NCBI GenBank assembly: GCA_036630325.1
Contig: CP142727.1
Coordinates: 1,302,001-1,366,000 of the forward strand
Direction of reading: 5' to 3'
From: Vairimorpha necatrix
Lineage: Eukaryota
Length of the DNA: 64,000 nt
The notes beneath the pieces are model-generated. The model had not been told where the DNA came from, searched no databases, and saw nothing but the letters and a program-made list of their open reading frames with translations. Shown in pieces: positions 1 to 53,400 of the stretch; the first letter of the stretch is position 1; every line of letters starts with the position of its first letter. Position numbers and translations under genes: made by a program.

Positions 1-1844
1 ACACTTTTTTTTCATGTTTTAATGTTAAATCGTTTATCCTTTGAAGAATAAATTTTTAACGTGAATAATGTATATTATTTAATTCTCTGGTTTAAATGGT
101 AATCTATAATTCTTAGAGAATGGTTATTGGCATAAAATTACAAAAATAGTGCCCAATATTCTTAACGCTGTCAATAGTATTTTACTTTCTATGCCTTTAT
201 TAATTGTTTATTGCTATGTTAAACACATTTGAGACATTAATCGTGTTTATAATATTTTAAGATTATCTACCTAACTTTTTAATACAAAATACGTTCATTT
301 TCATTTTTAGAAATTTCTTTTAATTTCCAAAGACAATTAAAAGTAAAATTTCTTTGTTGTGTTTTTTTAAAATGTTTCAAGTCATATATTACATCGTATG
401 ATCTTAAAACAAATTCAAATTCGTCTGTTCAAGTATTGTTGCTTTGCGTTTATAAATTTTAAATACTTTTATTTGAAAATTTACTAATAAAGGTTACCGA
501 AAAAACTCATTTAATGTTTCTCCTGTTGTTTAGGGGGTTACGTCATATAATTTTCCACATAATTTTAATAAATGATAAGAAGAGAAATTCATGCAAATAA
601 ATTATGTACAATACGTATTTGACAATCTTTCTCTAGATTTTCGTCCCGATATTGCTAGTTTCTCGTTCATGCTGCGTATTTTCTTGAAGATTGCGCTATT
701 AATATACCTAATGACTTGTTCACCCAAATCCTTTTTATTGTTATAAATTAACATATGCTACAATTCAATTTTTCACCCTTATTTTTCATATATGTGCTTC
801 GCAATACTTTGATATTATACACTCAAAAGATATCAGCAAACTTATTAGCTAGGTTCAACCATGAATTGAGCATAAACTATTAATTAAGATATATTAATTC
901 ATCAATTTTCCGATTCCGCCCATTGTTAATTATCGAAAAATTGTATGTTATCTTTTTATCTAGATCCTTTTCTTTTTTATATATTAAATAAAATTTGGTC
1001 TTTGTGGAAAATTCGGTTAAATCTTCTCAAATATCTACCAGAAATTACAAGTATCTGTCTGCGGCCATCTCTTGTGCAGAATGGTTTATAAATAGTTTTT
1101 TGGCGATATAACAAATTTTTCGCACAATACAAGAAATGTAAAGATAAAAAATCATAGATTGTATTCGAGCTAAATAATTCTTTACATTTATTCCAATTTT
1201 TAATGCGAAATGAACAACAATTATAATTTTTTAGACGTGAGTTTATTTTCTTTACACGGAGTCATTTTTCTTGTATTGTATTTAGAAGCCGTTTTGTGAT
1301 TAGTAGGTACATTGCGATGTCTGAATTAAATCGAGAAATCTTTTATTCAAATTCTATTACTCAGAGTCCAGAGTAAAACTTTTTTACAATAAGTTTCGGC
1401 TAAAGAGAACTTACAGCCCCCGCATTTGAGGCGCTACGATTTTTTTTTCGAACCCCAAAAATGAAGTGTAAAAAAAGGAGGAGCAAAGAAGAGACGAAAA
1501 TTACTAGGCACTTATGATATTAAAAATACTAAATAAAAATATGCTTTTATACAAAAATTAATTTTTAATACATGTTTTTTACAAAATTATAAACCAATAA
1601 GCATTTTTTGCAATTCTGATTTTTTAGAATTGGGGACAAAAAACGCTCCCCTCTGAGGGCGTTCACTTTATTATTTTGAACCCCAAAAACGAAGTGCAAA
1701 ATAAAGGAGAAGCAATCATTAGTACTCAAATTACTTGCATCTTCAAACAGTAAAAATACCAAATAAATATATATTCTTATACGAAATTTAATTTAAAAAA
1801 AGAATATAACCATAAAACTTTATAATTCTAAATAACTTAACATA

Positions 1845-1892
1845 TGTCTTTATTTATCATAATGGGGATAGAAATTATACAAATATATCACA
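1845..1892 (-). repeat. 3' LTR of copy A (48 bp)
   Basis: Identical to 4609-4657 except one fewer base in the G/C run; preceded on the minus strand by PPT GAGGGGGGGA (1893-1902). Confidence 0.92.
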
Positions 1893-1915
1893 TCCCCCCC
1901 TCAAGACGGTTAGTC

Positions 1916-4624
1916 TCATCTAATTTTCACATCTACCCCAAGCATACCCTTCAGATCATAATGTCTCTTCTTCACAAGCCTACCATTACTAAGTTTTACA
2001 ATATAAGAATCCTTTCCACACTTTTCAACAATTTTTCCTGTATCCAAAAATCTTCCTTTTTCATACTTATTAACACCTGCCAAATTTTCTCGTTTAGCTA
2101 TTCTTACCAATTGACCTTTACTAAATTTTTCGATCTTTCCCTTTCCAAACCTATTACAATATTTCCCTATAGGGCTATTTGCAAGCATTACGTCTCCAGT
2201 TTTATCTTCAGTCGCTTCTAATGGTGTACATTTTATTCCCGTATGATAGCTCTGATTATATATATCGATACTTTTATACACTTTACCTTCAAAAGTTTTC
2301 GCATCCGACTTTAAAATACTTTCTCTCAAAGTTCCTATAACACGCTCTACTCTTCCGTTACTTCTATGCGCTTCTATACTTACTTGTCGGTGTATTATAT
2401 CGAGATCTCTACAAAATTTTCTAAATTCCGCGTTAATAAACTCCTTCCCGTTATCTGTAATAATTTCTTCTGGTTTCTTCCCTTGCTCACATAATCTTTT
2501 CAAAAATCCAACAACATTATTACTTGACTTGTTATTTATAACTACTCCCCATACTCTACGTGTAAAATAATCGATAGCAACTAAAACATATTTCTTCTCA
2601 TTTCTAAAGTCTATCAAATCTAATGCAACCTTCTCTAAGTATCTCGACGTATCTACAAATTCACAACCACCCATATTTTTCCTGTTATTATTAAAAAACG
2701 GTTTATTTCTTATCTCCACCAGTGCTTTGTGATCCGTTTCTATCTTGAATTTCCTACCTCTTAACTCGTATTTAAATTTATCAATGCCCCAATATATCGC
2801 AAGCATTTCCTTTTCTGATATTCCATATCTTATTTCGGTAGGTGTTAGCTTTTTAGATGCCCATTGTATAGCAACCCATTCCCCATTCTCATTCTTCTGA
2901 AGTAACACCGCACCCAATCTCAAATTGCTAGCGTCTGTTCTTAGTATGAACTCCTTATTATAGTCCGGTAATCTTAGTCTTCCCATATTTCTTAACACAT
3001 TTTTCATTTTAGTAAATTCCTCTTTCATCTCTTCCGTAAATTTCCACGAATTGCCATTTTTCTTCAAACTATCTGTCATTTTCAACGTCAGCCCGGCATA
3101 ATCTTTTATAAATGGTCTGAACCACCCAGTCAATCCTAGAAACCTCCTCAATTCCGTCAAAGTTTTTGGATCCGGATACTCCAAGGCTTCATTTTTCTTT
3201 ATTTCGTCGGCCGTCATGTCTATTCCATTCAGCGTCACACCTAATAATTTTACTTCCGCTTGTCTAAACTGTATTTTCCCAATATTTAATTTCATTTTAT
3301 TTCTCTTAATTCTTTCTATAACCTCTATTACTAATTCATCGTGTTTACGTTTATTGTTGGCATGTATTACTATATCGTCCATGTATACCTCAACACCATT
3401 TCCTCGCAAATCTTCAAAAATCATATTCATCGTTCTCTGTAGTATCTGTGGGGAATTTTTGTATCCCATCACCATACTATTCCATTCGTAAACTTTTTTA
3501 TTGAATTCAAACGCCGTCTTATGTTTATCTTTTTCTTCGATTTCAAAATGGTAAAATGCTTCTTTGCAATCAACAACAGTAAATATTATCGACCCTTGCG
3601 TAGCTCTTATTATTTCTCTCATATTCGTTAGCTCATACGGGTCTTTCTCGACTAAATCATTCAACCCTATAAAATTACTAACTACTCTTACTTCACCACT
3701 TGGTTTAAGTATCGCTCTTATTGGGTTTCGCCATTCCGAAGACGATCTTCTTATAATTTTTCTATTTTCTAAATCATTAATATATTCCTCAGTCTGTTTG
3801 ATCAAAGCCTGTGGGATCGTCTGTCCCTTTCTGACTATCTTCTTACCCTCTGGAGTATCTATCTTACACTTCTCTAATGTACAATAACTTATAACCTCAT
3901 CTCCTTGTTTAAAAACTTCTTCATATTCCGCTTTGAGATCTTCCAACGTAAATTCCCTCTTCAGTAATCTTCTTTTCGTCTCTTTATTGCTCGCATATAT
4001 TCTTTCTTTATGTCTTCTATCACTATTATCACATTCCTTTAACTTAACTCGTTTTGTCTTTCCACTTGGTTTATATTCTTTATTATCATTACTGCTACTA
4101 CAACTTTGGTTTTCGTCTAAATTTAAGTACTTATTAAACTTTTTATTATTTTTCTGATTATTGTTCCTTCCTAAATAGCAGTTCCTAGCCATATGACCAA
4201 ATTTACCACAATTAAAACAATTCCTATTATTTCTTATTTCTTGTACTGTACTCCTTAAAACTAAATCTTTCTCTTGAATTTCTTTTCTCACAGTTTCTCT
4301 AACATTCTCAGCTATGACCTCCATAAGTTCTCTCCTATTTTCTTCTTCTTTTTTAGTTCTTTCTTCTCTACATATTTCCTCCTCTAATTTTTCAATTATT
4401 TTATAATATTCGTCCTCTTTACTAATTCTTTCTACCATGAAATTTTTTATTTCTTCACTTCCTTCCATAAATATTCTCTGCTTCCACAAACTGATTTCTA
4501 CTTCCTCCATCTCCAACCTATACATTATTCTTCTAACTTCCTTTATTAACTTTTTGGCCTCTAGACCACAGTCCACACTTGTAAACTGACGATTCGGTAT
4601 CGCCCCCATGTCTTTATTTATCAT
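1916..4624 (-). CDS. Gag-Pol polyprotein (short Gag with CCHC knuckle, RT, RNase H, integrase core; no protease motif; integrase zinc finger deleted)
   Basis: CFNCGKFGHMARNC knuckle; RT YMDD; RNase H TDAS and TDH; integrase IDYFTR, TDNG, SNGRVER. The ATG lies inside the 5' LTR after a CCCCC run. Confidence 0.9.
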   Translation of the reverse strand: MINKDMGAIPNRQFTSVDCGLEAKKLIKEVRRIMYRLEMEEVEISLWKQRIFMEGSEEIKNFMVERISKEDEYYKIIEKLEEEICREERTKKEEENRRELMEVIAENVRETVRKEIQEKDLVLRSTVQEIRNNRNCFNCGKFGHMARNCYLGRNNNQKNNKKFNKYLNLDENQSCSSSNDNKEYKPSGKTKRVKLKECDNSDRRHKERIYASNKETKRRLLKREFTLEDLKAEYEEVFKQGDEVISYCTLEKCKIDTPEGKKIVRKGQTIPQALIKQTEEYINDLENRKIIRRSSSEWRNPIRAILKPSGEVRVVSNFIGLNDLVEKDPYELTNMREIIRATQGSIIFTVVDCKEAFYHFEIEEKDKHKTAFEFNKKVYEWNSMVMGYKNSPQILQRTMNMIFEDLRGNGVEVYMDDIVIHANNKRKHDELVIEVIERIKRNKMKLNIGKIQFRQAEVKLLGVTLNGIDMTADEIKKNEALEYPDPKTLTELRRFLGLTGWFRPFIKDYAGLTLKMTDSLKKNGNSWKFTEEMKEEFTKMKNVLRNMGRLRLPDYNKEFILRTDASNLRLGAVLLQKNENGEWVAIQWASKKLTPTEIRYGISEKEMLAIYWGIDKFKYELRGRKFKIETDHKALVEIRNKPFFNNNRKNMGGCEFVDTSRYLEKVALDLIDFRNEKKYVLVAIDYFTRRVWGVVINNKSSNNVVGFLKRLCEQGKKPEEIITDNGKEFINAEFRKFCRDLDIIHRQVSIEAHRSNGRVERVIGTLRESILKSDAKTFEGKVYKSIDIYNQSYHTGIKCTPLEATEDKTGDVMLANSPIGKYCNRFGKGKIEKFSKGQLVRIAKRENLAGVNKYEKGRFLDTGKIVEKCGKDSYIVKLSNGRLVKKRHYDLKGMLGVDVKIR
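4591..4608 (-). promoter_or_regulatory. Primer-binding site, probably tRNA-Pro
   Basis: TGGGGGCGATACCG abuts the LTR. Its complement ...TATCGCC-C-CCA fits a tRNA 3' end with a C discriminator, as in eukaryotic tRNA-Pro. The same 13 nt occur at 47348-47360. Confidence 0.65.
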
Positions 4625-4657
4625 AATGGGGGATAGAAATTATACAAATATATCACA
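4609..4657 (-). repeat. 5' LTR of copy A (49 bp)
   Basis: Minus strand reads TGTGATATATTTGTATAATTTCTATCCCCCATTATGATAAATAAAGACA. Confidence 0.92.
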
Positions 4658-4745
4658 ACATATTTAAATTAAATTTTTTGATTTAACAATCTGTATAGAT
4701 CGTTGAACATTTATTTAAATTTTCTTATATAAATAATATTTATAA

Positions 4746-4818: not shown

Positions 4819-4878
4819 AAAATTGAAAAAATAAGAAGGGCGAAAAAAGACACAATACTTCAAATGATTATTATAACT

Positions 4879-5228
4879 TGTCAGGCTGCAGACCTGCACT
4901 GACGATACGGCTTCCAGTTAAACAATAATAATTGGACCTGTCAAACATCTCGAAGTAGTGTAAACAAACATTGAACATTTGACATGCACAAACTAAAAGT
5001 AGGAAAGGTGCATGTCACATGACGTACTACTACTTTAGTAGAACTTTGGTTTCTTGTTTGTTTGTTTACATCTTAAAGAGTTTGACAGTTAATCTAATTA
5101 ACTATTTAAACGGAATTTACCCCTAACCCACAATTCCGATGAGCAACAAAAAAGATAACAACTTAAATAAATATGTTAACTTAGACTCACCCTCTTCTAC
5201 TTCGGATCAGGCTACATGCCGGATCACA
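4879..5228 (+). repeat. 5' LTR (350 bp)
   Basis: Direct repeat of 8925-9270; differences seen are two substitutions and one 4-bp TGTT indel. Confidence 0.95.
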
Positions 5229-8200
5229 AATGGCGACAACGAAGAGATTTGTAAAGAAGAAAATATGGATTCAATACTCTTAAAATTAAAAAATTTAATG
5301 TCAATGGAAAAGTGGATAACTTTTCAAGGACTAAAAACTGAACATCCAAAGACATTTTTAGGGCAATTCTTAGAATATGAGAAGCAATGGCCTCAGAGCA
5401 CCCTATATGCAAAAGCGACTTCAATGCTTAAGGGAAAAGCCGAACTATGGTTTAGAGCGAATGAAGAATCGATGCTCACATATAAGCAATTTGTTGAAAA
5501 TTTTAAACGTAATTTTATTAAAAGAGAATCAGAAATAGATAAAACTGAAAAGTTCTGGGACCTAATCAGGGAAGGCCCAATTCATCCAGATATGCTGTCA
5601 TACAGTTACAGCCTACATATATACGCTGGACAATCAGAATCCTTATTTAAAAGAAGTAAAGAGAAACTCAGAGATTTATTAGATGACGAATACCTTCGCG
5701 ATGGTATAGAAAGATGTCATGATTGGAACGAGTTAGAGGAATACATAAAGTTAAAAGAAGAAAGATTAAACAAAAAAATTCGAATCTTCTATAAAAAACA
5801 ATATAAAAATAAAAACGAATATAAAAATAAGAATGAATATAAAAATAAAAATGAATATAAAAGTAGTGAAAGAAAAATAGACTACAGGGGCAACGAGACA
5901 AGAGTCAGCCCCGATTCAAAGCCTTATAAAAAAGAATTATTTAAAAAGAATGAGCAAAAGAAAGCTCTAATTATCTCAGCAAAACTACTAAAAGTAAATG
6001 ATCGAAGACCAAGAGTAAAATTAAATTTTGAAGATCAAGTTATAGTAGCATTATTGGACTCAGGGGCTAACGTATCAGTTATACGTAGAAAAGAAGCGGA
6101 AGAGCTGAGTGATGAAATTCTAAAGGAAAAAGGAGAAATAAAAGGTTTTAATGGAACAAGCAGAGTGATAGGCTCATGTAAACTTAAAATAAAACCAAAT
6201 AATCGCTCAGGAGCGGAAACAATTACCTTATTAGTGGTGAATGATATGGAGGAAGCGATAATTCTTGGAATAGAAGAAATCGAAAAATTAAATATGATAG
6301 ACTATATCCCAATAAATCAAAAGAAAGTCGGTAAAAAAAGATCAATACCTAAGAAAAAAAGGATTGTATTAAACGCGGAAGTTACTACAAAGAAGGAAGA
6401 TAGTAACCCGGATTTGAATGAATTAATTAAGAACATCAAATGTGAAAACACACTGTTAAGAAAGAAGTATACACACACTCTTGAAAAATATACTAAACTA
6501 TTCTCTGATGATAATTCTTTAAATAATATCGAGATCGAACACGCGATCGAATTAGTAAATGGAGCTACTATGTCTCCATGCCCAAAGTATAAAAGATCCC
6601 CGGAAGAACACAAGATCATTCGAGAAGAAGTTAAGAAATTTATTGAAAAGGGCATAATTGAGGAGAGTGAAAGTCAGTATATATCACCAGTGGTACTAGT
6701 AAAAAAAAAGGATGGAGGTATTAGGTTTTGTATAGACTTCCGACGATTGAATAAAATAACAATACCATATGAATATCCGATACCAAGGATTGATGAGACC
6801 CTGGATCAACTACAAGGGGCTAAAATATTTAGCACAATGGACGTTGAATCGGCTTATAACCAGATATCTGTAAGGCAAGAAGATAGATTTAAGACTGCTT
6901 TTTACACACGAGAAGGAATCTATCAATGGAGAAAAATGCCTTTCGGGTTAATTAATGCACCCTTCACATTTCAAAAGATCATGAATAAGTACTTTGCGAA
7001 ATATATGCACAAATTTGTAACAATATACTTAGATGATATTTTAGTATATTCAAACGATCATGATAGCCATCTACAACATTTAGAGACTATTCTGAGTATT
7101 ATTAAGAAGGTAGGGCTGAAACTAAATAAGAAAAAATGTCAATTTGTACAGGAAAGTGTGGAATTTCTTGGATTTAGTGTGTGCAACGGAGAGATTTCAA
7201 TACCTTCGCAGCAAAGGATGCGTTCAATCAATTGGCCCGAACCGAAGACAAAAAGAGATGTCAGGGCTTTTAATGGATATTCTTCATTTTTTAGCAAGTT
7301 TATTAATAATTACGCAGATAAAATGAATCCATTATACGATACGATTAAGGGAGCTAAAAATTCAAAACTGAAAATGACAGAAGAAGCTTTGCAAGCATTT
7401 AATAATATGAAAAAGGAAATCGCCAATGCATCTGGCTTGAAACTACCAGATTTTAGAAAGAAATTTTACTTATATACAGATGCATCAAAACTGGCATTGG
7501 GAGCAGTATTACAACAAGAAGATGAACATGGAGAATTGAGACCCATTATATGCATCTCAAGAACTTTGAGCCCAGCAGAAATTAACTACACGGTAACTGA
7601 AAAGGAGTGCTTAGGTGTAGTGTGGGGAGTTAAAAAACTACGAGTTTATCTGACACAACAGTTCATAATAAGGACAGATCATCAAGCATTAAAATGGCTA
7701 CTAAATCTAAAAGATGCTACAGGTAGACTAATGAGATGGATATTGACCTTACAAGAGTATAAATATATAATTGAATACATACCTGGAGAAGAAAATGTAA
7801 TGGCCGATGCACTCAGTAGAATTGTGATGATAGCATCAAATACTCAAGAAGAGGAAAAGCTATCCGCCGACGAGAAGGTTCGAGTAATACTAAAAAGTCA
7901 TCACGAGTGCGGACATGGCGGTGTTGATGCAACATACGTACTCACATTGAGAGAAAAAAATGGAAAGGCATGTATAAGGACGTGATCGAAACGATAAGAA
8001 GATGTAACATATGTAATCGACATTCACGTGGGGCCACTAATTTACAGAAAATCAGACTTCCACTGATGAATCCCCTGGATAGAATAGGGATAGACCTAGT
8101 AGGTCCTCTGCCGAAAAGTTATAATGGAAATAGATACGTAGTAATTACAACGGATTATGTAACTAGATGATGCGAAGCAGACGCAATAAAATCTAAATCT

Positions 8201-8884
8201 ACAAATGTGATTGCTTTATTTATACTAAAGAAGATAATTTGCCAACATGGACCACCTAAGGAAATATTGTCTGATCAAGGCACGGAATTCACGAGCAGAT
8301 TAATAAAAACTATATGTGGCATGATGAATTGTAAGAAATCGTTTACTTCAAGTTACAACCCGAAATGTAATGGGTTGGCAGAGCGCACTAATCAAACCCT
8401 AATAGGTAAACTAGCTAAATTAGTTGATGGTAGGTGGAAACAGTGGGATGAATACCTCCCCTATGCGATATTTGCTTACCGAATATCTCCAAGAAAACAA
8501 TCTAAAAGGTCCCCGTACGAACTTTTATATGGGAGATTGCCAAATATGTTTCTAGAGGCCAAGTTAGATGATAATATCCTTGAAGATAACGGCCTTATAG
8601 TCGAGAGATTAAACGAATTTCGTAAATTAATGATAAATGAAGAAAAAGAAATACGCGCAAAAGAAATAACAAATGTTAAGAAGGGTAGAAGCCTTGACGA
8701 TATTGAAGAAAATGATTACGTAAGAAGGAAAAAACTGTTAACTGAAAAAGAGAATAAGTTAGATGCAAACTTTGATGGAATCTATAAAGTCATAAAAAAA
8801 GGGAAGAATGGAAACTATGAAATTGAAGGTTTAAATGGAATGCGATACTCAGTGAATCGAAAAGACTTAATGAAAATTGAATAG
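5139..8884 (+). pseudogene. Gag-PR-RT-RH-IN polyprotein, disrupted in the integrase
   Basis: Protease LLDSGA; RT YLDD; RNase H TDAS; integrase HHCC, SDQG, NGLAER. Frameshift in the A-run near 7955 and an in-frame TGA at 8168-8170 where Trp is expected. Confidence 0.9.
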
Positions 8885-8924
8885 TCAGATCCAATAGATT
8901 GGATTCTTTCGAAGGAGGGGAGAG

Positions 8925-9270
8925 TGTCAGGCTGCAGACCTGCACTGACGATACGGCTTCCAGTTAAACAATAATAATTGGACCTGTCAAACATCTCGAA
9001 GTAGTGTAAACAAACATTGAACATTTGACATGCACAAACTAAAAGTAGGAAAGGTGCATGTCACATGAAGTACTACTACTTTAGTAGAACTTTGGTTTCT
9101 TGTTTGTTTACATCTCAAAGAGTTTGACAGTTAATCTAATTAACTATTTAAACGGAATTTACCCCTAACCCACAATTCCGATGAGCAACAAAAAAGATAA
9201 CAACTTAAATAAATATGTTAACTTAGACTCACCCTCTTCTACTTCGGATCAGGCTACATGCCGGATCACA
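8925..9270 (+). repeat. 3' LTR (346 bp)
   Basis: Direct repeat of 4879-5228, preceded by the PPT. Confidence 0.95.
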
Positions 9271-10079
9271 TAACTAAATCTAAAATTAATTTTTGTATAA
9301 AAGCATATTTTTATTTAGTATTTTTAATATCATAAGTGCCTAGTAATTTTCGTCTCTTCTTTGCTCCTCCTTTTTTTACACTTCATTTTGGGGGTTCGAA
9401 AAAAAAATCGTAGCGCCTCAAATGCGGGGGCTGTAAGTATCCCAGCTCCTAAGTTTCTTATTGTTGACGTTGTAAATGTCGTTCCAAGCTTTAACTAAAA
9501 TTTTCCTAATTATTAAGTTCTTTATACTGAATTTTAAATTCGTGTATCTTCTTATGGCCAAGCATGTTTCTTTGTCTTCTATTAAAATTGTAGCTCTTTC
9601 ATGATACGTGTTTAGTTTCGGGCGCAAAGGTCTGGGCCTTGACTTTCCTATATTTTTATGTACTGAATGCGGGTCTATATCGTAGAGTGGGTAAATGTTT
9701 TGTACCAAAAGTATGCTTAAAGTCGAAATTTAACAGATTTGTTCGAATTTCATTCGAATTATAATTTTTTGAGCCATAAACTTTTTTCGATATTATTTTC
9801 AAGACTATCTTGCACTAATGTTATGCCTGGAGGCACTTGAAAGTTGTTAAAAATCTTTAAGACACACTTGAGGCAATATGTAGCTAATGTATGAAATTTT
9901 ACTAAAATTGCCATATAATCTACGAATCGTCCTGTGATAATTCAATTAACCTCAGGAGATCGGTACATATACTGCCACGAGTTTAGTATTAGAAAATATG
10001 GGATTTCTAAGCATCGATTGGAGTTTTAAGTAATCATTTTCTACTTTTCGAATCCCTATTCATACTTATTTGTATGTTT

Positions 10080-45676: not shown

Positions 45677-47298
45677 TCATTCTTCATTAGTTTTTTACCC
45701 ACTGTATATTAAATTATTTTGATTTTATTGTTATTAAAATGTTCACTATATGTATGCCTGCTTATTGTATAATAAATACGTATTAAAATGTCATAAAAAA
45801 ATAAAAGATTTGAACAAAAACAACTTTATTAAAATATCTAAGCTACTTTAAAGGCCTTTTGCTTTTTACTCTTTCACGAGTTTTTATTGACATGACTGGT
45901 AGATTATAGATGCCGTCCTATTTGTTGTATATTTCTAAAAAATTCATGCTAAATTTCTAGTCTACTTTTTCAATAGGATCTATTGATCGACTAGTATCTA
46001 TACTTCAATTCACATTAATAATTTTTGTATACTTGAGCAAAAAGGTCATTTTTAGAATACATATGTGGTTATGTGTGGTGGTACTCCTCATTCGTTCTAA
46101 TTTCTTTGTATTTGCTTGTTATTATACTGTCAAATTGTATTTTTAGCATATTTTATTTGATTATCTCATTTTATTTCTTTCTACCAATAACTAGGACGTA
46201 TTTGTATGAAAAAATATTGTAACATTACATGTTATAGTGTGTTTCTATGCTACACATCGATACCTCATATTGCACACCTTTTCTTTATTTGATAGTTTTT
46301 CAATTAAAGTTCATATATTTTAGTTTCGTAAAATAATATTGTGTTAATTTTTTTACAACACGTATTATTATCCTAAGTGATAATTATCTGCTTATGAAAA
46401 ATAAATTTATGTTTCTATTAAAATTTTTAATGTGAAAGTTAAATAAAAAACATAACATATTTATATCCGAAATTTAAAATAAAAACCTTAATATTGTAAA
46501 GCAATAAGAGGTTGACTTTTGTATTTGTCTAATTAATGCTAATTTTATGATTTAAATCTAATAACTTACTTTATTCGCATATAACAAATAAAAAAGGCTT
46601 AAAATTTTTCTGATACATTGTTTAATTATGCATCTACAATTATAGGTAATGGCACACTTGACAGATTATTTAAGATATTTATTAGAGTAGATACAAAAGG
46701 TAAAAAAGAACAAGTCAACTTATAAGATCTCTATTTAGCGATCTCATAAAATAAGCCCGTAGATAAATTTTTACCTTAAACATACGTTATTACTTGCAGA
46801 TTGACGCATATACGGAAAAAAATATTCTTGATTTGTTTATAACCTCATAAATCGAATGATCACAAAAAGTGTACTGAAATAGCATATATTATATAAATTT
46901 TTTTGAGATGATTTTTAATAATGATTTAGAAAATTTTCTATACGTTGATTGAGTTTTTTTATAGTCAGAGTATTGTTTGTTTTTGTTTATGATAATATAA
47001 TACCGCATCTTTGTCTATTTATAAATTATCGAAAGGTAAATACACAACATTATCGAAATCGGTATATATTGTTTTATACCGATGGCAGAACAGTTTCAAT
47101 AACTATAATTAATTTTAATATAAACCTTTGCAAGGTATGACTGGCATGAAATTTTTTTATATATAAGTACACAATATTTTTATTCGTAGATCATAAGCAC
47201 GTACTGACCATGATTAATAAAAATGTTTTATTTCGTTCAAAATTTAGAGCTAAATGTTTATATTTTCTTTCTTTATATTCTTAATACTCCATTATATA

Positions 47299-50200
47299 TG
47301 TTATATATCCTTATTATTTTTACCCCTCATTATGGAAAATAAACACATGGGGGCGATACCAGAAAATGGGTCTACAAAGGAGGACCGTGGCCAAGAGGCT
47401 AGAATATTATTAAAAGAGGTTAAAAGGATTGTTTATGAGTTGTTTTTAGAGAAAATTGATGAGTGTGGATTTAAATTAGAAATTTTTAGGAGAGGTTCTA
47501 TTTTATTGAGAAATTTTATTGTTGAGAGGATCTCGCAAGAGGGTAGTTGGAAGGAAATTGAGGAAAAATTAGAGTTGCTAGCTATTCAGGAGGAAAAGGA
47601 ACAAGTGAGAAAAAAAGAATTTGAAGAGTTGTCCCTAGCGTTATGGGCTAAATTTGAGGAGAAGAATAAGTTGTCTCGTGAGGAAAATAAAAAGAATATG
47701 CGTTGCTACAATTGTGGGAAGTTAGGCCATAGTGTTAGATTTTGTAGGGGAATGAGGCGAGATTCTGAAGACAGAAGAAATAAAAGTAGTTTTAATTATG
47801 TTGGTAAATGTAAAGTGCAATTAGACTTAGAGGGTAAATGTGATGACGATTCCAATTCGGACAAATGTGATTATTATAATGTTGATGGTGGGAAACGTAA
47901 GAAGAAAAATTTAGGGGATATACAAGATTATAGCAAAAGGGACAATAATAAGAGAGTTCTGTTGAGAAGGGATGTAAGAGGCATCGCGTATTTAGAGGAG
48001 ATTATTTCACGGGTAGGAGGAAGAGAGGATGAAGATATTAGTTTTTGTAAGGTTGAAAAATGTATTATCAAGACTCAAGAAGGCAAGAAAGTTGTTAAAA
48101 AAGGGCAGGCTATAGCTCAGGCTTTGTTGAAGAAGACGGAAGATTATATTAATAGTTTGGAAAGAAGAAAGATAATTAGAAGGTCGACATCTGACTGGAG
48201 AAATCCCATTAGAGCGATTGAGAAACCGAATGGTGATATAAGATTAGTAAGTAATTTAATTGCTCTTAATGACATTGTAGAGAAGGATCCTTATGAGTTA
48301 ACTAGGATAAGAGATGTTATTAGAAGTACAAGGTATCTGAATTTTTTACCGTGATAGATCTAAAGGAGGGGTTTTATAGTATTGAGATTGAAGAGAAGGA
48401 TAGGTTTAAGACGGCTTTTGAGTTTAATAAAAAGGTATACGAGTGGAATTCGATGGTCATGGGGTTTAAAAACTCACCGCAGATATTACAAAGAATAATG
48501 AATGGGATTTTTGAAAAATTTATTGGTAAGGGAATCGAAATTTATATGGACGATATTGTGATTCATAGTAAGACAATAGAGGGTCACGACAAATTGTTGA
48601 AAGAGGCTGTGGATATATTAGAGGAGAATAGTATGAAAATTAATTTGGCTAAGGTTCAATTATGTAAACGAGAGGTGATGTTGTTAGGAGTAACAGTTAA
48701 TGGCAAACAGATACTGCCATCTGAAATAAAGCAAAATGAAGCGTTAGAATTTCCCAAACCGGAGTGTGTATCAGATGTTAGGAAGTTTCTTGGGCTGGCT
48801 GGATGGTTTAGAAATCATATTGATAATTATGCAAAACGTACATTGGCGTTGACGGATTCTCTTAAAGGACGAGGAAGTAATTGGAAATGGACAGAAGAAA
48901 TGGAAAAAGAATATACTAGTTTAAGGGAAGTGATTAGGGATTTAAAAGGTTTAGCAATTGTTAATTATAATAAGGAATTTTTGTTACGCACGGATGCGAG
49001 TAATGTTGGAATGGGTGCTGTTTTAATGCAGGAAGATGATCAAGGTAATTGGGTACCAGTACAGTGGGCATCAAAAAAGTTTACGCCTACGGAAACGAGA
49101 TATGGAATCAGTGAGAAGGAGATGTATGCAGTCTTTTGGGGAATTAAAAAGTTTGAATATGAACTACGCGGAAGAAGATTTAGGGTAGAAACTGATCATA
49201 AGGCATTGATCGAGATTAGAAATAAACCAGCATTTAACAATAATAGAATTAACAGGTGGATTGAAAAGATTCAAGAGTTCGACTTTAGCATTGAATATAG
49301 AGAGCCTAGTACCATGGTTGTAGCAGATGCACTGAGTAGGGTACATGAAAATGAGAAAACGCTAATGAATAAGGAGAGAAGTATTAAACAGGCACAGGGT
49401 AAATGGGACAAGCATGTTAAAGTTGTTGATGGGAAGGAAATTTGGGTATTTGACTCTGGTAGAGAAGCGGAGATTCCAAAGAAAGAATTGCGTGAAGGTT
49501 TAATTGTCAATGCTCATGAAAATTTGGGACATAGAAGTTTAGGATCAGTGTACTATGCAATGAAGTTTGAATTTTATTGGCCGGGTATGAAGAAGGATAT
49601 CGAGGATGTTTTAAAGAAGTGTGAAGTTTGCCAAATATATAATAGGAAAAAGAGTGGTGGTTGTGATTTTGTTAGTTCAAGATTTTATTTGGAAAAGGTT
49701 GCTTTGGATTTGATTGAGTTTAGAGATTTAGGGAAATATGTGTTGGTCGTGATTGATTATTATACTAGGATCGTTTGGGGAAAAGTAATAGAGGACAAAC
49801 GCGGAAGCTCGGTTGTAGGATTTTTAAAACAGTTGTGTGGATCAGGAATGAAACCGGTAGAAATAATTACTGACAACGGTAAAGAATTTAGTAATGAATA
49901 TATGAGGAATTGGTGTTCAGAGGAAAATGTATTACATAGGAAAGTAAGCGTAGAAAGTCATAGAAGTAATGGAAGAGTGGAAAGGGTAATAGGAACCATA
50001 AGAGAAGGAATATTGAAAGATGATGCTGTGGATTTTGAAGCCAAGGTTAATAGATGTATATGGCGTTATAATAACAGCTATCATGAAGGGTTGAGATATA
50101 CACCGTTTGAGGCCTCAAGAGACGAAACGGGCCATGTTATGATCGAGAATGGACCTGAAGGATTTTATAGTAGGAGGTTTGTGGCTCGCAAAAGAGAGAA

Positions 50201-50481
50201 ATTCTATAAAGGTCAGAGAGTTAGGGTAGCGAAGAAAAAGAACTGATCGGGTTGTAGTAAGTATGAGAAAGGAAGGTTTTTAGGATATGGTGTTATCAAG
50301 GAAGTTTGCGGAGGTGACTCGTACTTAGTTAGTTTGGAAAATGGTAGGATCGTGAAAAAGCGGCATTATGATTTAAAAGGTCTGCTTGGGATTAATGAGT
50401 TCTAGTATGAGACTACCGTCTTGGAGGGGGGATGTTATATATCCTTATTATTTTTACCCCTCATTATGGAAAATAAACACA
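47299..50481 (+). mobile_element. Ty3/Gypsy LTR retrotransposon with ultra-short 49-bp LTRs (copy B, full length, 3183 bp)
   Basis: Identical LTRs at 47299-47347 and 50433-50481. TSD ATATA (47294-47298 and 50482-50486). PBS TGGGGGCGATACC at 47348-47360. PPT GGAGGGGGGA at 50423-50432. Confidence 0.94.
47332..50405 (+). pseudogene. Gag-RT-RH-IN polyprotein without a protease motif; one frameshift and one nonsense codon
   Basis: ATG inside the LTR; CYNCGKLGHSVRFC, YMDD, TDAS, H..GH..CEVC, TDNG. Frameshift near 48330. After the TGA at 50244-50246 the frame continues (KYEKGRF...VKKRHYDLKG) to a TAG ending at 50405, matching the C-terminus of copy A. Confidence 0.88.
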
Positions 50482-53400
50482 ATATATATTAATTACAACT
50501 TATTGGATTATTAAAAATAAAATTTTATGGTTTAGTAACACAACTATTTTAATGAATTAAACAATATTGTATGCCTTCCAAACAGCATTTCGTATGCACT
50601 AATTTTTTAAAACTAAAATGCGCAGATAAACATCTGGCAATCTCTATCTAAAAATTATTTTGTTTTGAATTAGAAATGTTTAGTTCAAAGTAATATTATT
50701 ATATATAACTGACATTTTTTAAGCAGAGCAAATTTGACCTAATGTCTAAATTTTTTTTTTAACATTTTAAGATAAATTTTTACGGTTCATTTCGCTATAA
50801 TTCTCTTTGATTACAATTTTTAGACAACAAAATTTTAAAAAGTGTTATTACCTTTGCGCAACAATCATTGTATTTATTATAAAGAACTGAATGTTCTTTA
50901 TTAGCATCAGAAGTCTTTTTAAGAGGATCTTTTAGTTCCGTTCATAATGTAATGTTTCAACAAAAATTCCTTATGATGTTATGAAACTTCTATGGCCTCT
51001 AGAAAATAAAGCACTGCTGCTAATAGAAAAACACAAACTAAGAACGATATGAAGAGGTCTAGATTTACAATATGAGAGAAAGACTTGATGCGTTAAGAAA
51101 CTTAACTTGAAACTCTCAGAGTAACTATCTATCCAATTAAAGATCTAGAAGAAGTAACCCGGTCGGCCCAGCACATTCTATCTCACAAAATTACTTAGTA
51201 CTGCAAAAAAAAAACTTCGGATGAGTCAACTGGTCAACGTGATTTATTAAAGGGAAAAATGGTAGTATGGTAGGTAAGGGTGCGTATGCAAAAAGAGGAC
51301 GCAAGTAAAGCTGTATATTTAATACGACTATATCTCTCGTTGGCATTTGAAATCTTACCCGCTAATTATATCTAATGTGAATCAGTTTAGGCGGGTTAGA
51401 ATAATAGTTATACGAATCCCCAGTAAAAAAAGTTCAATAGATACGCGAAATTACTGTGCTAGAAGTTTAATTCAGAATATTTTGATGTGTAAGATGTTGA
51501 GTATAATTAGATGAAAATATAATCTCAAGTACTATAAATTCTTTTGGAACATCTAAATTTCCTACTTAATAATTGAAAAAATATAAACCTATATTTTAAA
51601 TTTCTACGGCCTTTAGATTAATATATCGAAGTCAAATTTTTGTAGTTATTTAAAAATAATAGCTGTTCTAAGTTCGAGCAAACCGTAGACTAAACTCTCA
51701 TGTTATAAGCTCAATATAATTCACTTATAGTTCTTGTGCCTCTTCATATAATTTTTTTTTTGTTTAATTATTTTACACAAATTATCAAGATGCAAATCAT
51801 AGTAGTGTTGAATGTGCTTAAATCTAATTCCGCGATTTTTTTTGGTTTGTAGTATTCAAAAGTTTCTTATATGAATTATATCAAAAATATATTTCAAATC
51901 CCCTAATAACTTTCCTTTTTGAACCTATCGTACGTACTCATATTTAATTTTGTTGCTATCTCGCGTCAAAAAAATAATTTTTTATGTTTTTCTTATAAGA
52001 TCTCACACATTTGATGTAAAAAAATATTTATAAAATTTGATGTCTAAAATTATACATTGAATGGGTTATCTGCGAGAATTACATGGAAACTTATAAATCT
52101 TAAACTAAGAATATATCAAAAATCTACCTTGGAAACAGGATGTTTTTTCACTATATAGAAGTTCTAGCTGTGTTATATAAGTGTTTATTCACTAAAACAA
52201 TTTTATATAAGCTGTAGATAGCCATAACATTTGACAATTAGAGTTGTTCAAAAAAGGAACATTTTTTTATATCGCGATTGAAAGCTTACGTAAACATATT
52301 TACACCATATTTCTAGTGGCGCCCTAAAACATAAAGTACTAACACGGAAGACTACTCTTTATTTATTCAACAAATGAGACTCTAATCCCGTGGGAATAAA
52401 TCTAGAATTTTATAGACCCGTTGAACTTTTGTTTTCTTTGTGTTGATCCAAAGCTGAAAAAACAACTCAAAAAGGAAGTTTGATAATTTTTTTTGATGTG
52501 GAAGTATGATTGATCTTTTAGCTCAAGGATCGACCTATAAGAATAAAACCGGGCCTTTGTCGCCATGTAGTACTTTAAAAAATTAAAGTAGCGTGTAAAC
52601 AATATTTTTCTCAACGAAAGGTGTGTTTACATTTGACGTAAATGCCACATAAGTTTGATAACCAACTTACCATTTAATGAGAACACATTTTATATTTCAA
52701 GAATAAACATTACATCTAAGTAGCTGCGTATAATGGTGTTTTTTTATAGACTCTGATTTTTATTATCATTAATTCTTAAAAACTCAACTATGGTATTCGT
52801 TTTTTCATTGTTTTGAAAATATTTCTCACGCGTTATAATATGTTTATGTTTTGTTATTTGCCTTTCAGATTGTGTTTTAAAGCCTCGGAAAATTGTAATA
52901 TAAATTTTATACACCGAAAGTCATAAGGAATGTAATCACATTTTTGATTTGACATGCTTAATGTACTAGGTAAAATATAAAAAAACCTTTCAAATGTTAC
53001 ATCTAGGGTATCATGTTAGAAAAACGTAACCAATAGATGTAATAAAGTTGTCGATTCGGCCGAACAAACGAATTTATGTAAATTGTTTTGTAAGTTGTGG
53101 GGAAAATGTCAGCACACACCAAAGAGAAATTTCAAGATATGTATATATATTATGCAGAAAATTAAAAAGTTTTATAATGTTCTTATTGATCTCCTCTGGA
53201 AATATAATATTTTAAAAGATACTTTCTGCCTTTTTTCATTTGAAAGCGAAAATGAAAAACACACGTATCTTGGAAATGATTCCCTTTTATAATTTAATTT
53301 TTCACAATTTTAATTTATTATTTCTAATTTAAAAATTTAAAGTATTTACAGATTTAGAATATCATTCTCGAGTTCTTTGTTAATGTAAAAAAAATATATG

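Follow-up and report, generated by a model that had tools for sequence, protein, structure and literature searches.

A compact Ty3/gypsy retrotransposon family with long terminal repeats of 48 to 49 bp in the microsporidian Vairimorpha necatrix

A 64,000-nt stretch of the Vairimorpha necatrix genome (GenBank assembly GCA_036630325.1, contig CP142727.1, positions 1,302,001 through 1,366,000 of the forward strand; herein the window, with positions counted from its first letter) contains two diverged retrotransposons, El1 (47299-50481, + strand) and El2 (1845-4657, − strand), whose long terminal repeats (LTRs) are only 48 to 49 bp long. The family that they represent is a real, unusually reduced form of Ty3/gypsy, and its structure is firmly established. 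We consider it likely that El1 and El2 are defective copies of a very compact, Metaviridae-type Ty3/gypsy family of a Nosematidae microsporidian, in which the LTR would operate by the mechanism proposed below.

Direct reading combined with a repeat search delimits El1 as a Ty3/gypsy copy. Its 5′ LTR of 49 bp (47299..47347) has TG..CA ends and carries a T-rich tract, CCCC at LTR positions 25 through 28, an ATG at positions 34 through 36, and AATAAA at positions 40 through 45. The primer binding site (PBS; TGGGGGCGATACC, 47348..47360) abuts this LTR and is read in frame as (M)GAIP. The frame encoding gag, reverse transcriptase (RT), RNase H, and integrase runs from 47332 to 50405, with its terminal stop TAG at 50403-50405, and is followed by a motif conserved in the four family 3′ ends compared (GAGACTACCGTCT, 50409..50421), slightly 5′ of the polypurine tract (PPT; GGAGGGGGGA, 50423..50432). 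The PPT abuts the 3′ LTR (50433..50481), a 49-bp identical copy of the 5′ LTR, and the 5-base target-site duplication ATATA is found on the left (47294..47298) and again on the right (50482..50486). El2 was recognized in the same way as a second, diverged copy of the same family. On the − strand it comprises a 49-bp 5′ LTR (4609..4657; CCCCC, ATG at position 34, AATAAA at positions 40 through 45), a PBS of the same 13 nt (4596..4608), a single open frame of 902 aa (1916..4624; gag with a CCHC knuckle, RT, RNase H, and integrase core), and a PPT (GAGGGGGGGA, 1893..1902) abutting a 48-bp 3′ LTR (1845..1892) that has one C fewer than the 5′ LTR. Its target-site duplication, ACATA, lies at 1840..1844 and 4658-4662. 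The architecture given in a preliminary description of this DNA (two diverged elements with 48 to 49 bp TG..CA LTRs, 5-bp target-site duplications, and abutting PBS and PPT) was thus borne out, as was its reading of both 5′ LTRs, in which the ATG at position 34 opens a frame that takes AATAAA as Asn-Lys and crosses the PBS as MGAIP. Direct repeats at 1440-1564 and 1668-1794 adjoin the El2 insertion site; these are of 37 and 67 nt, lie 228 to 230 bp apart, and are 76 to 84% alike.

The 48 to 49 bp LTRs are the true ends of a mobile unit. Their length is far under the usual Ty3/gypsy range; the TG..CA ends and the 5-bp target duplication fit the class, and the termini are of the integrase type, TGT..ACA. 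None of 100 shuffles of the window gave any LTR match, and none of 100 shuffles gave two PBS matches. The LTRs of El1 and El2 are identical at 38/49 positions (78%; hand count on the alignment) and share the blocks TGT.ATATAT, ATTT.TA.CCC, CATTATG, AAATAAA, and a terminal ACA, whereas positions 11 through 17 are variable; the PBS 13-mer is identical in the two. An 8-kb stretch around El1, of which the element makes up 0.40, is partly present in 20 public runs from 14 studies, the largest share being 0.41. Four of these runs (X1 through X3, guessed to be DNA, and X16, guessed to be RNA) were mapped onto the window, all as contigs. In 4/4 the cover is confined to 47298-50481, with a depth of 0 to 4.5 on the flanks versus at least 33 on the element. 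Loose contig ends fall at 47295-47297, 47347/47348, 50431, and 50483-50490, and the flanking letters differ from run to run. As the contigs leave at the LTR edges into different flanks, the repeats are the edges of a mobile unit in independent insertions and not truncations. The 3165-letter contigs of X1 and X16 were considered as circular DNA and rejected; their length equals one LTR-to-LTR period plus ∼30, and we read them as a k-mer graph cycle through the LTR.

It is highly improbable that the 49-bp repeats are leftovers of longer LTRs or chance repeats flanking a dead pol gene. Such an origin is suggested only by the unusual shortness of the repeats; it does not sit with their equal length in two diverged elements, with target duplications that touch them, with a PBS and PPT that abut them, or with the complete lack of matches after shuffling. 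Truncation of long LTRs, a case that the preliminary description had itself raised, is ruled out by the contigs of other runs, which break at the same LTR edges.

The coding capacity of the family is best seen in P0004, an intact polyprotein of 1024 aa that is encoded on a metagenome contig and shares 97 to 98% amino acid identity with El1. The intact element measures ∼3184 bp, of which 3075 bp (96.6%) are coding; the frame begins at LTR position 34, and 27 nt separate its stop from the 3′ LTR. Within this one frame, a short gag, predicted to be helical and containing a CCHC knuckle, is followed by the RT, RNase H, and integrase domains, and the Pfam order RVT_1, RT_RNaseH(_2), Integrase_H2C2, rve found in El1, El2, and P0004 is that of Ty3/gypsy. 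Among proteins of solved structure, the nearest is the Ty3 Gag-Pol polyprotein (E 3e-57, PDB sequence search), with 7q5b and 4ol8 as RT/RNase H relatives, and the more distant homologs are gypsy-type polyproteins of animals and plants.

Measured against P0004, both window copies are defective. Two lesions break the El1 frame: the loss of 1 nt near 48330-48351, which shifts frame 1 to frame 3, and an in-frame TGA at 50244-50246. Relative to El1, all four mapped runs have one extra base after 48330 and a different letter at 50245; the X1 contig differs from El1 by eight letters and one gap. El2 has no counterpart of P0004 residues about 671 through 770, so that ∼100 residues including the integrase zinc-binding domain are missing. 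In run X3, one contig joins 48045 to 50084, skipping 2038 bases. It may represent a derivative that has lost its interior and keeps gag plus the 3′ end, possibly far commoner there than the full element; its depth is 1193 versus 15 to 78 for contigs inside the skipped part, contig depth not being equivalent to copy number.

The family has no protease domain that we could detect by sequence comparison or in the predicted structure. In P0004 there is no Pfam protease match even at E ≤ 0.1, and a protease family is matched in 0/53 of the closest homologs, while several distant ones have it (P0058, P0060, P0068, P0073, and others). The stretch between knuckle and RT is only ∼40 to 100 residues long and unconserved, and D[ST]G is missing in 21/22 aligned members. 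In an AlphaFold model built on a 22-row alignment (mean predicted local distance difference test score [pLDDT] of 78), residues 144 through 216 have a pLDDT <50. The modeled gag would consist of four helices within residues 22 through 120, one of them of 48 residues, plus the knuckle. The CCHC knuckle scores 22.7 bits in El2 and falls under the Pfam cut-off in El1 and P0004, and none of these three proteins gives a Pfam match to Retrotrans_gag. We treat a retropepsin-type protease as a typical, not a classifying, feature of Ty3/gypsy; this typical feature is not found here.

The family might instead be nonautonomous and, having lost its protease, draw one, and perhaps a capsid, from elements elsewhere in the genome that do have a protease, for example El3, an ordinary Ty3/gypsy element in the same window. 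The lack of a detected protease, a predicted gag of four helices plus knuckle, and the presence of El3 in the window would all agree with such a dependence. We nevertheless rate it as somewhat unlikely, because the protease-less layout with open frames of ∼1000 aa has been kept across a 43-row clade whose named members come from Nosema, Vairimorpha, Enteropsectra, and Pseudoloma, and a function that needs no protease is a more economical assumption than long reliance, in each host, on a helper to which the family is unrelated.

That clade was recovered with a Shimodaira–Hasegawa-like approximate likelihood ratio test (SH-aLRT) support of 100 in a quick maximum-likelihood tree of 62 rows; El3 was placed among the distant elements, outside the compact clade. 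The rows were El2, El3, 42/53 close homologs (the 11 under 700 aa were omitted), and 18/57 distant ones chosen by hand. The reference set therein is 18 animal or plant elements; copia, BEL, Nbr, and Parisot et al. 2014 references are not among the rows. Named members of the compact family come from Nosema granulosis, V. necatrix, Enteropsectra breve, and Pseudoloma neurophilia, the first two being the nearest. Among closer members, single LTRs fit lengths of 49, 47, and 38 bp (L003:3222-3270, L039:2390-2436, and L038:2724-2761, one edge of each being inferred), and L040 has no recognizable 5′ end. The metagenome contigs L001 (50-3133) and L002 (1092-4139) were set aside as LTR sources on account of their chimeric arrangement. 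In both, the family gag, which is without its first ∼18 residues, is preceded by an in-frame fusion to part of the RNase H of another element; the frame is of 830 aa, with no recognizable LTR or PBS. A scan of viral contigs gave nothing beyond distant integrase matches.

What distinguishes these LTRs, apart from their size, is that each looks like a host gene start. In each of the seven nonelement open reading frames (ORFs) of the window that are 150 aa or longer, a C run is found in the 20 nt ahead of the likely start, at a distance of 1 to 19 nt, against a background in which CCC occurs in only 6% of all 20-nt segments. For the host kinase ORF, whose protein is 64% identical to a Vairimorpha bombi kinase, the likely start is the second ATG, which is the recorded start; the same identity assigns the window to a Nosematidae microsporidian. 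The El1 LTR reads ATTTTTACCCC-TCATT-ATG and the El2 LTR TTTCTATCCCCC-ATT-ATG, so that the C run ends 5 and 3 nt, respectively, before the ATG at position 34. In Encephalitozoon cuniculi, 5′ untranslated regions are <7 nt and a CCC-like motif stands just upstream of starts (PMC2803860), and the upstream motif of Nosema ceranae is TTTTTTTACCCC (PMC11592040). Promoter, R (the repeated region), and poly(A) signal within the LTR are putative assignments.

A second in-frame ATG is created by the LTR/PBS junction, ..CA|TGG, and is more widely kept than the upstream LTR ATG. We compared the N termini of 32/53 close homologs, namely those that start with M and place no fewer than 100 residues ahead of the knuckle (the other 21, being truncated or lacking a knuckle match, were dropped). 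Nine start M[A/G], 16 start M-x(1-6)-M[A/G], and 7 differ; 25/32 thus fit the pattern predicted by reading the ..CA|TGG junction in frame. The junction ATG (the last A of the LTR plus TG of the PBS) might be the working start and the ATG at position 34 incidental, in which case transcription could start anywhere up to position 48 and R would be even shorter or placed otherwise. The junction M[A/G] in 25 of the N termini, the nine for which no upstream ATG is called, and a relative (L052) whose frame begins at the junction ATG favor this alternative, as does the +4 G of ATGG, which is favored in E. cuniculi (PMC2803860). We regard it as rather unlikely. The C run, at a host-like 3 to 5 nt from the ATG at position 34, is 20 nt (El1) and 18 nt (El2) from the junction ATG; P0020 and P0045 appear to read TGG in another frame (..DG.. 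and ..HG..), where only the upstream LTR ATG can serve; and in L058, L056, and El3 an ATG stands 31 to 90 nt before the LTR end.

Alternatively, transcripts could begin in flanking DNA or read through from neighbors, the whole 49-bp repeat then being R, with no division into a unique 3′ (U3) and a unique 5′ (U5) region and no promoter of its own. Work on E. cuniculi reports overrunning transcription as well as mixed transcripts (PMC2803860), and a 49-bp R would ease strand transfer. This is quite improbable, however, since insertions in different flanks would have no dependable promoter, the LTR carries the start-site motif of host genes, spaced from an ATG as it is in the host, and the motif block is conserved between the diverged LTRs while positions 11 through 17 vary.

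The position-34 start is one form of a module that also occurs in longer LTRs. The order C run, ATG, in-frame AATAAA, and in-frame ..CA|TGG PBS recurs in LTRs of 58, 75, ∼175, and 350 bp. The longest is that of El3 (4879..9270, + strand), which has a protease and LTRs of 350 and 346 bp (4879-5228 and 8925-9270); with its target duplications (TAACT) it spans 4874-9275, and its pol frame is split at about 7985/8207. The El3 gag ATG at 5139 is LTR position 261 and lies behind TTTACCCCTAACCC, AATAAA is in frame, and the frame crosses the PBS (5231-5241), which is separated from the LTR by a 2-nt spacer. The other three (L052, L056, and L058) are microsporidian contigs binned into bacterial metagenome-assembled genomes. 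L056 has an LTR of ∼175 bp with the ATG 49 nt before its end. L058 has 75-bp LTRs and a protease, with only a 9-nt PPT between the stop and the 3′ LTR. L052 has 58-bp LTRs, and its stop (3550-3552) falls inside the 3′ LTR (L052:3535-3592), which makes the polypurine region and the first 15 LTR bases coding.

Based on these features, the following scheme of transcription and reverse transcription is plausible. U3 would be LTR positions ∼1 through 29/33 and would combine the integrase end with the host's minimal T-rich/CCC core promoter. Transcription would begin, as it does in host genes, a few nucleotides short of the position-34 ATG, leaving only the last 16 to 20 nt of the LTR for R plus any U5. 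Given that microsporidian mRNAs are nearly leaderless at the 5′ end, the start codon would have to lie in R, which would make U5 and the PBS part of the coding sequence. The minus-strand strong-stop DNA, at less than ∼20 nt, would be transferred by means of this short R. RNA 3′ ends would probably lie at or just past the LTR end, with U5 perhaps vestigial; 3′ ends in flanking DNA would still be compatible with strand transfer onto the internal copy of R. The polyprotein would work uncut or be cut by a protease supplied in trans.

The PBS is a TGG-initiated 13-mer, and its TGGGGGC would fit a tRNA with discriminator C, a base that eukaryotic tRNA-Pro has. As runs X2 and X16 both read C at 47357 in their mapped contigs, the invariant core of the PBS is 9 nt. 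No PBS complement was seen by eye in the LTR that would allow a Tf1-type self-priming fold-back, and an Rfam scan of the window gave no matches. At the other end of the element, the motif GAGACTA(A/C)CCGTCT, also denoted GAGACTAMCCGTCT, is found just upstream of the PPT in 4/4 family 3′ ends (El1, 50409-50421; El2, 1904-1917 on the − strand; L003:3196-3209; L038:2701-2714; locus coordinates approximate). Its CCGTCT part does not vary, and the motif as a whole hardly does, although the proteins are only ∼50% identical; the motif may form a small AGAC/GTCT hairpin or serve as a second primer-contact site. Predicted pairing between the 5′ and 3′ parts of the RNA (first 130 nt versus last 45 nt before the 3′ LTR) was no better than in shuffles (El1, −22.8 vs. 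−20.2 ± 3.1; El2, −15.8 vs. −18.8 ± 3.0), and the motif did not pair significantly with the 5′ region.

Several observations weigh against this account of the family and its LTR. The ATG at position 34 is not universal, 9/32 N termini beginning at the junction ATG, and the LTR lengths of L003, L038, and L039 are each based on one LTR. L052 and L058 have no matching target duplications, which may be due to metagenome contigs joining the flanks of different copies. The preliminary description had assigned a poly(A) signal to the LTR: the hexamer is indeed present at positions 40 through 45, but it stands 4 nt from the LTR end, too near for cleavage inside the LTR at the usual spacing of ∼20 nt downstream of AAUAAA (PMC2803860), so that a working signal would put the RNA 3′ end in flanking DNA. 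The hexamer is also placed otherwise relative to CCC and ATG in L003, L038, L039, and L052, and it may partly be chance because the DNA has ∼28% G+C. For the primer tRNA, a scan of the window gave no tRNA genes. The four mapped runs are all in the form of contigs, and no element-bearing run is on record as RNA. Finally, since El1 and El2 are both broken, current activity in this genome does not follow from them.

Among known systems, yeast Ty3 is like the compact family in its order of RT, RNase H, and integrase, its 5-bp target duplication, and its PBS beside the LTR, which is of the tRNA type in Ty3 and putatively so here. The LTRs of Ty3 are 340 bp long and its GAG3 and POL3 frames are separate; it also differs in having a protease, a two-domain capsid, and a gag start downstream of the LTR. 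In Ty1, gag starts inside the 5′ LTR (R-U5) and the PBS is within the gag frame; unlike the compact family, Ty1 belongs to the Pseudoviridae, in which integrase precedes RT, and it has ∼334-bp LTRs and a protease. Other microsporidian Ty3/gypsy elements (Nosema bombycis Nbr1-8 in Xu et al. 2006; the microsporidia-specific groups in Parisot et al. 2014) are from the same phylum and likewise have a single gag-pol polyprotein (PMC4202319, PMC13174016); a full set of Gag, protease, RT, RNase H, and integrase is ascribed to nearly all of the Nbr elements (PMC2474625), whereas the compact family has no detectable protease. SMART/FRetro129 of grasses, earlier presented as the smallest LTR retrotransposon, likewise has TGT..ACA ends and a 5-bp target duplication, but it is noncoding and nonautonomous with 85-bp LTRs, while the compact family encodes RT and integrase between LTRs of 48 to 49 bp; putative autonomous SMART relatives have LTRs of 105 to 163 bp (all PMC3281118). 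A precedent for an R of ∼10 bp, with a promoter box near the poly(A) signal, exists in the plant Sire/Retrofit copia elements, in which only R is short and the LTRs are long (PMC3601003).

Our literature search found neither LTRs <85 bp nor this layout in microsporidia; Xu 2006, Xiang 2010, the Parisot 2014 supplements, and Repbase lay outside its reach. The microsporidian main texts examined give no LTR lengths, and the word “LTR” is absent from PMC7313128 and PMC10759460. Priority is therefore uncertain, as an Nbr or Anncaliia consensus with ∼50-bp LTRs may already exist in those sources. We put forward tentatively, as a proposal that could well be right yet falls short of probable, that microsporidian gypsy elements have rebuilt the LTR around a host leaderless-type start, with an integrase end plus a ∼25-nt core promoter, translation beginning inside R, a coding U5 and PBS, first-strand transfer on ≤20 nt, and possibly no U5 at all and RNA 3′ ends in flanking DNA. 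The protease-less, 96.6%-coding element would then be the smallest self-encoding LTR retrotransposon, with the shortest working LTR known. If true, this would provide an empirical minimum for U3, R, and U5 and would mean that a gag-pol polyprotein is able to function with no protease encoded alongside it.

Two further observations concern the material in which these elements were found. Metagenome bins G001 and G002, labeled Clostridium sp. and Turicibacter sp., contain 52 and 16 family-profile matches, respectively (loci L038/L050, L039, and L051 through L076); so many microsporidian-type retroelement contigs imply that the bins are contaminated with eukaryotic parasite DNA. Within the window, two pairs of paralogous ORFs (39705-40385/44996-45676 and 27289-27975/57542-58225) encode proteins of ∼226 to 228 aa with near-identical N termini, and each ORF follows a T-rich/CCC motif. 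The two of these ORFs that were tested gave no Pfam match, and the four probably belong to a lineage-specific multigene family.

The size of these LTRs bears on how such elements are found. The preliminary description had stated that common LTR finders default to a 100-bp minimum; this holds for LTRharvest, whose default minimum LTR length is 100 (PMC2253517, Table 1). Under a floor of ∼100 bp in LTR finders and repeat annotators, elements of this kind are annotated merely as stray polyprotein genes, and the transposable element load, insertion ages, and solo LTRs of microsporidia are miscounted. The compact family also offers a test, set up by nature, of how far U3, R, and U5 can shrink in an LTR element, and may mark a lower size limit; in the same way, it tests whether an unprocessed polyprotein suffices for reverse transcription and integration. 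More generally, it would illustrate how host rules for gene starts, here with next to no 5′ leader, may oblige a mobile element to make its U5 and PBS coding.

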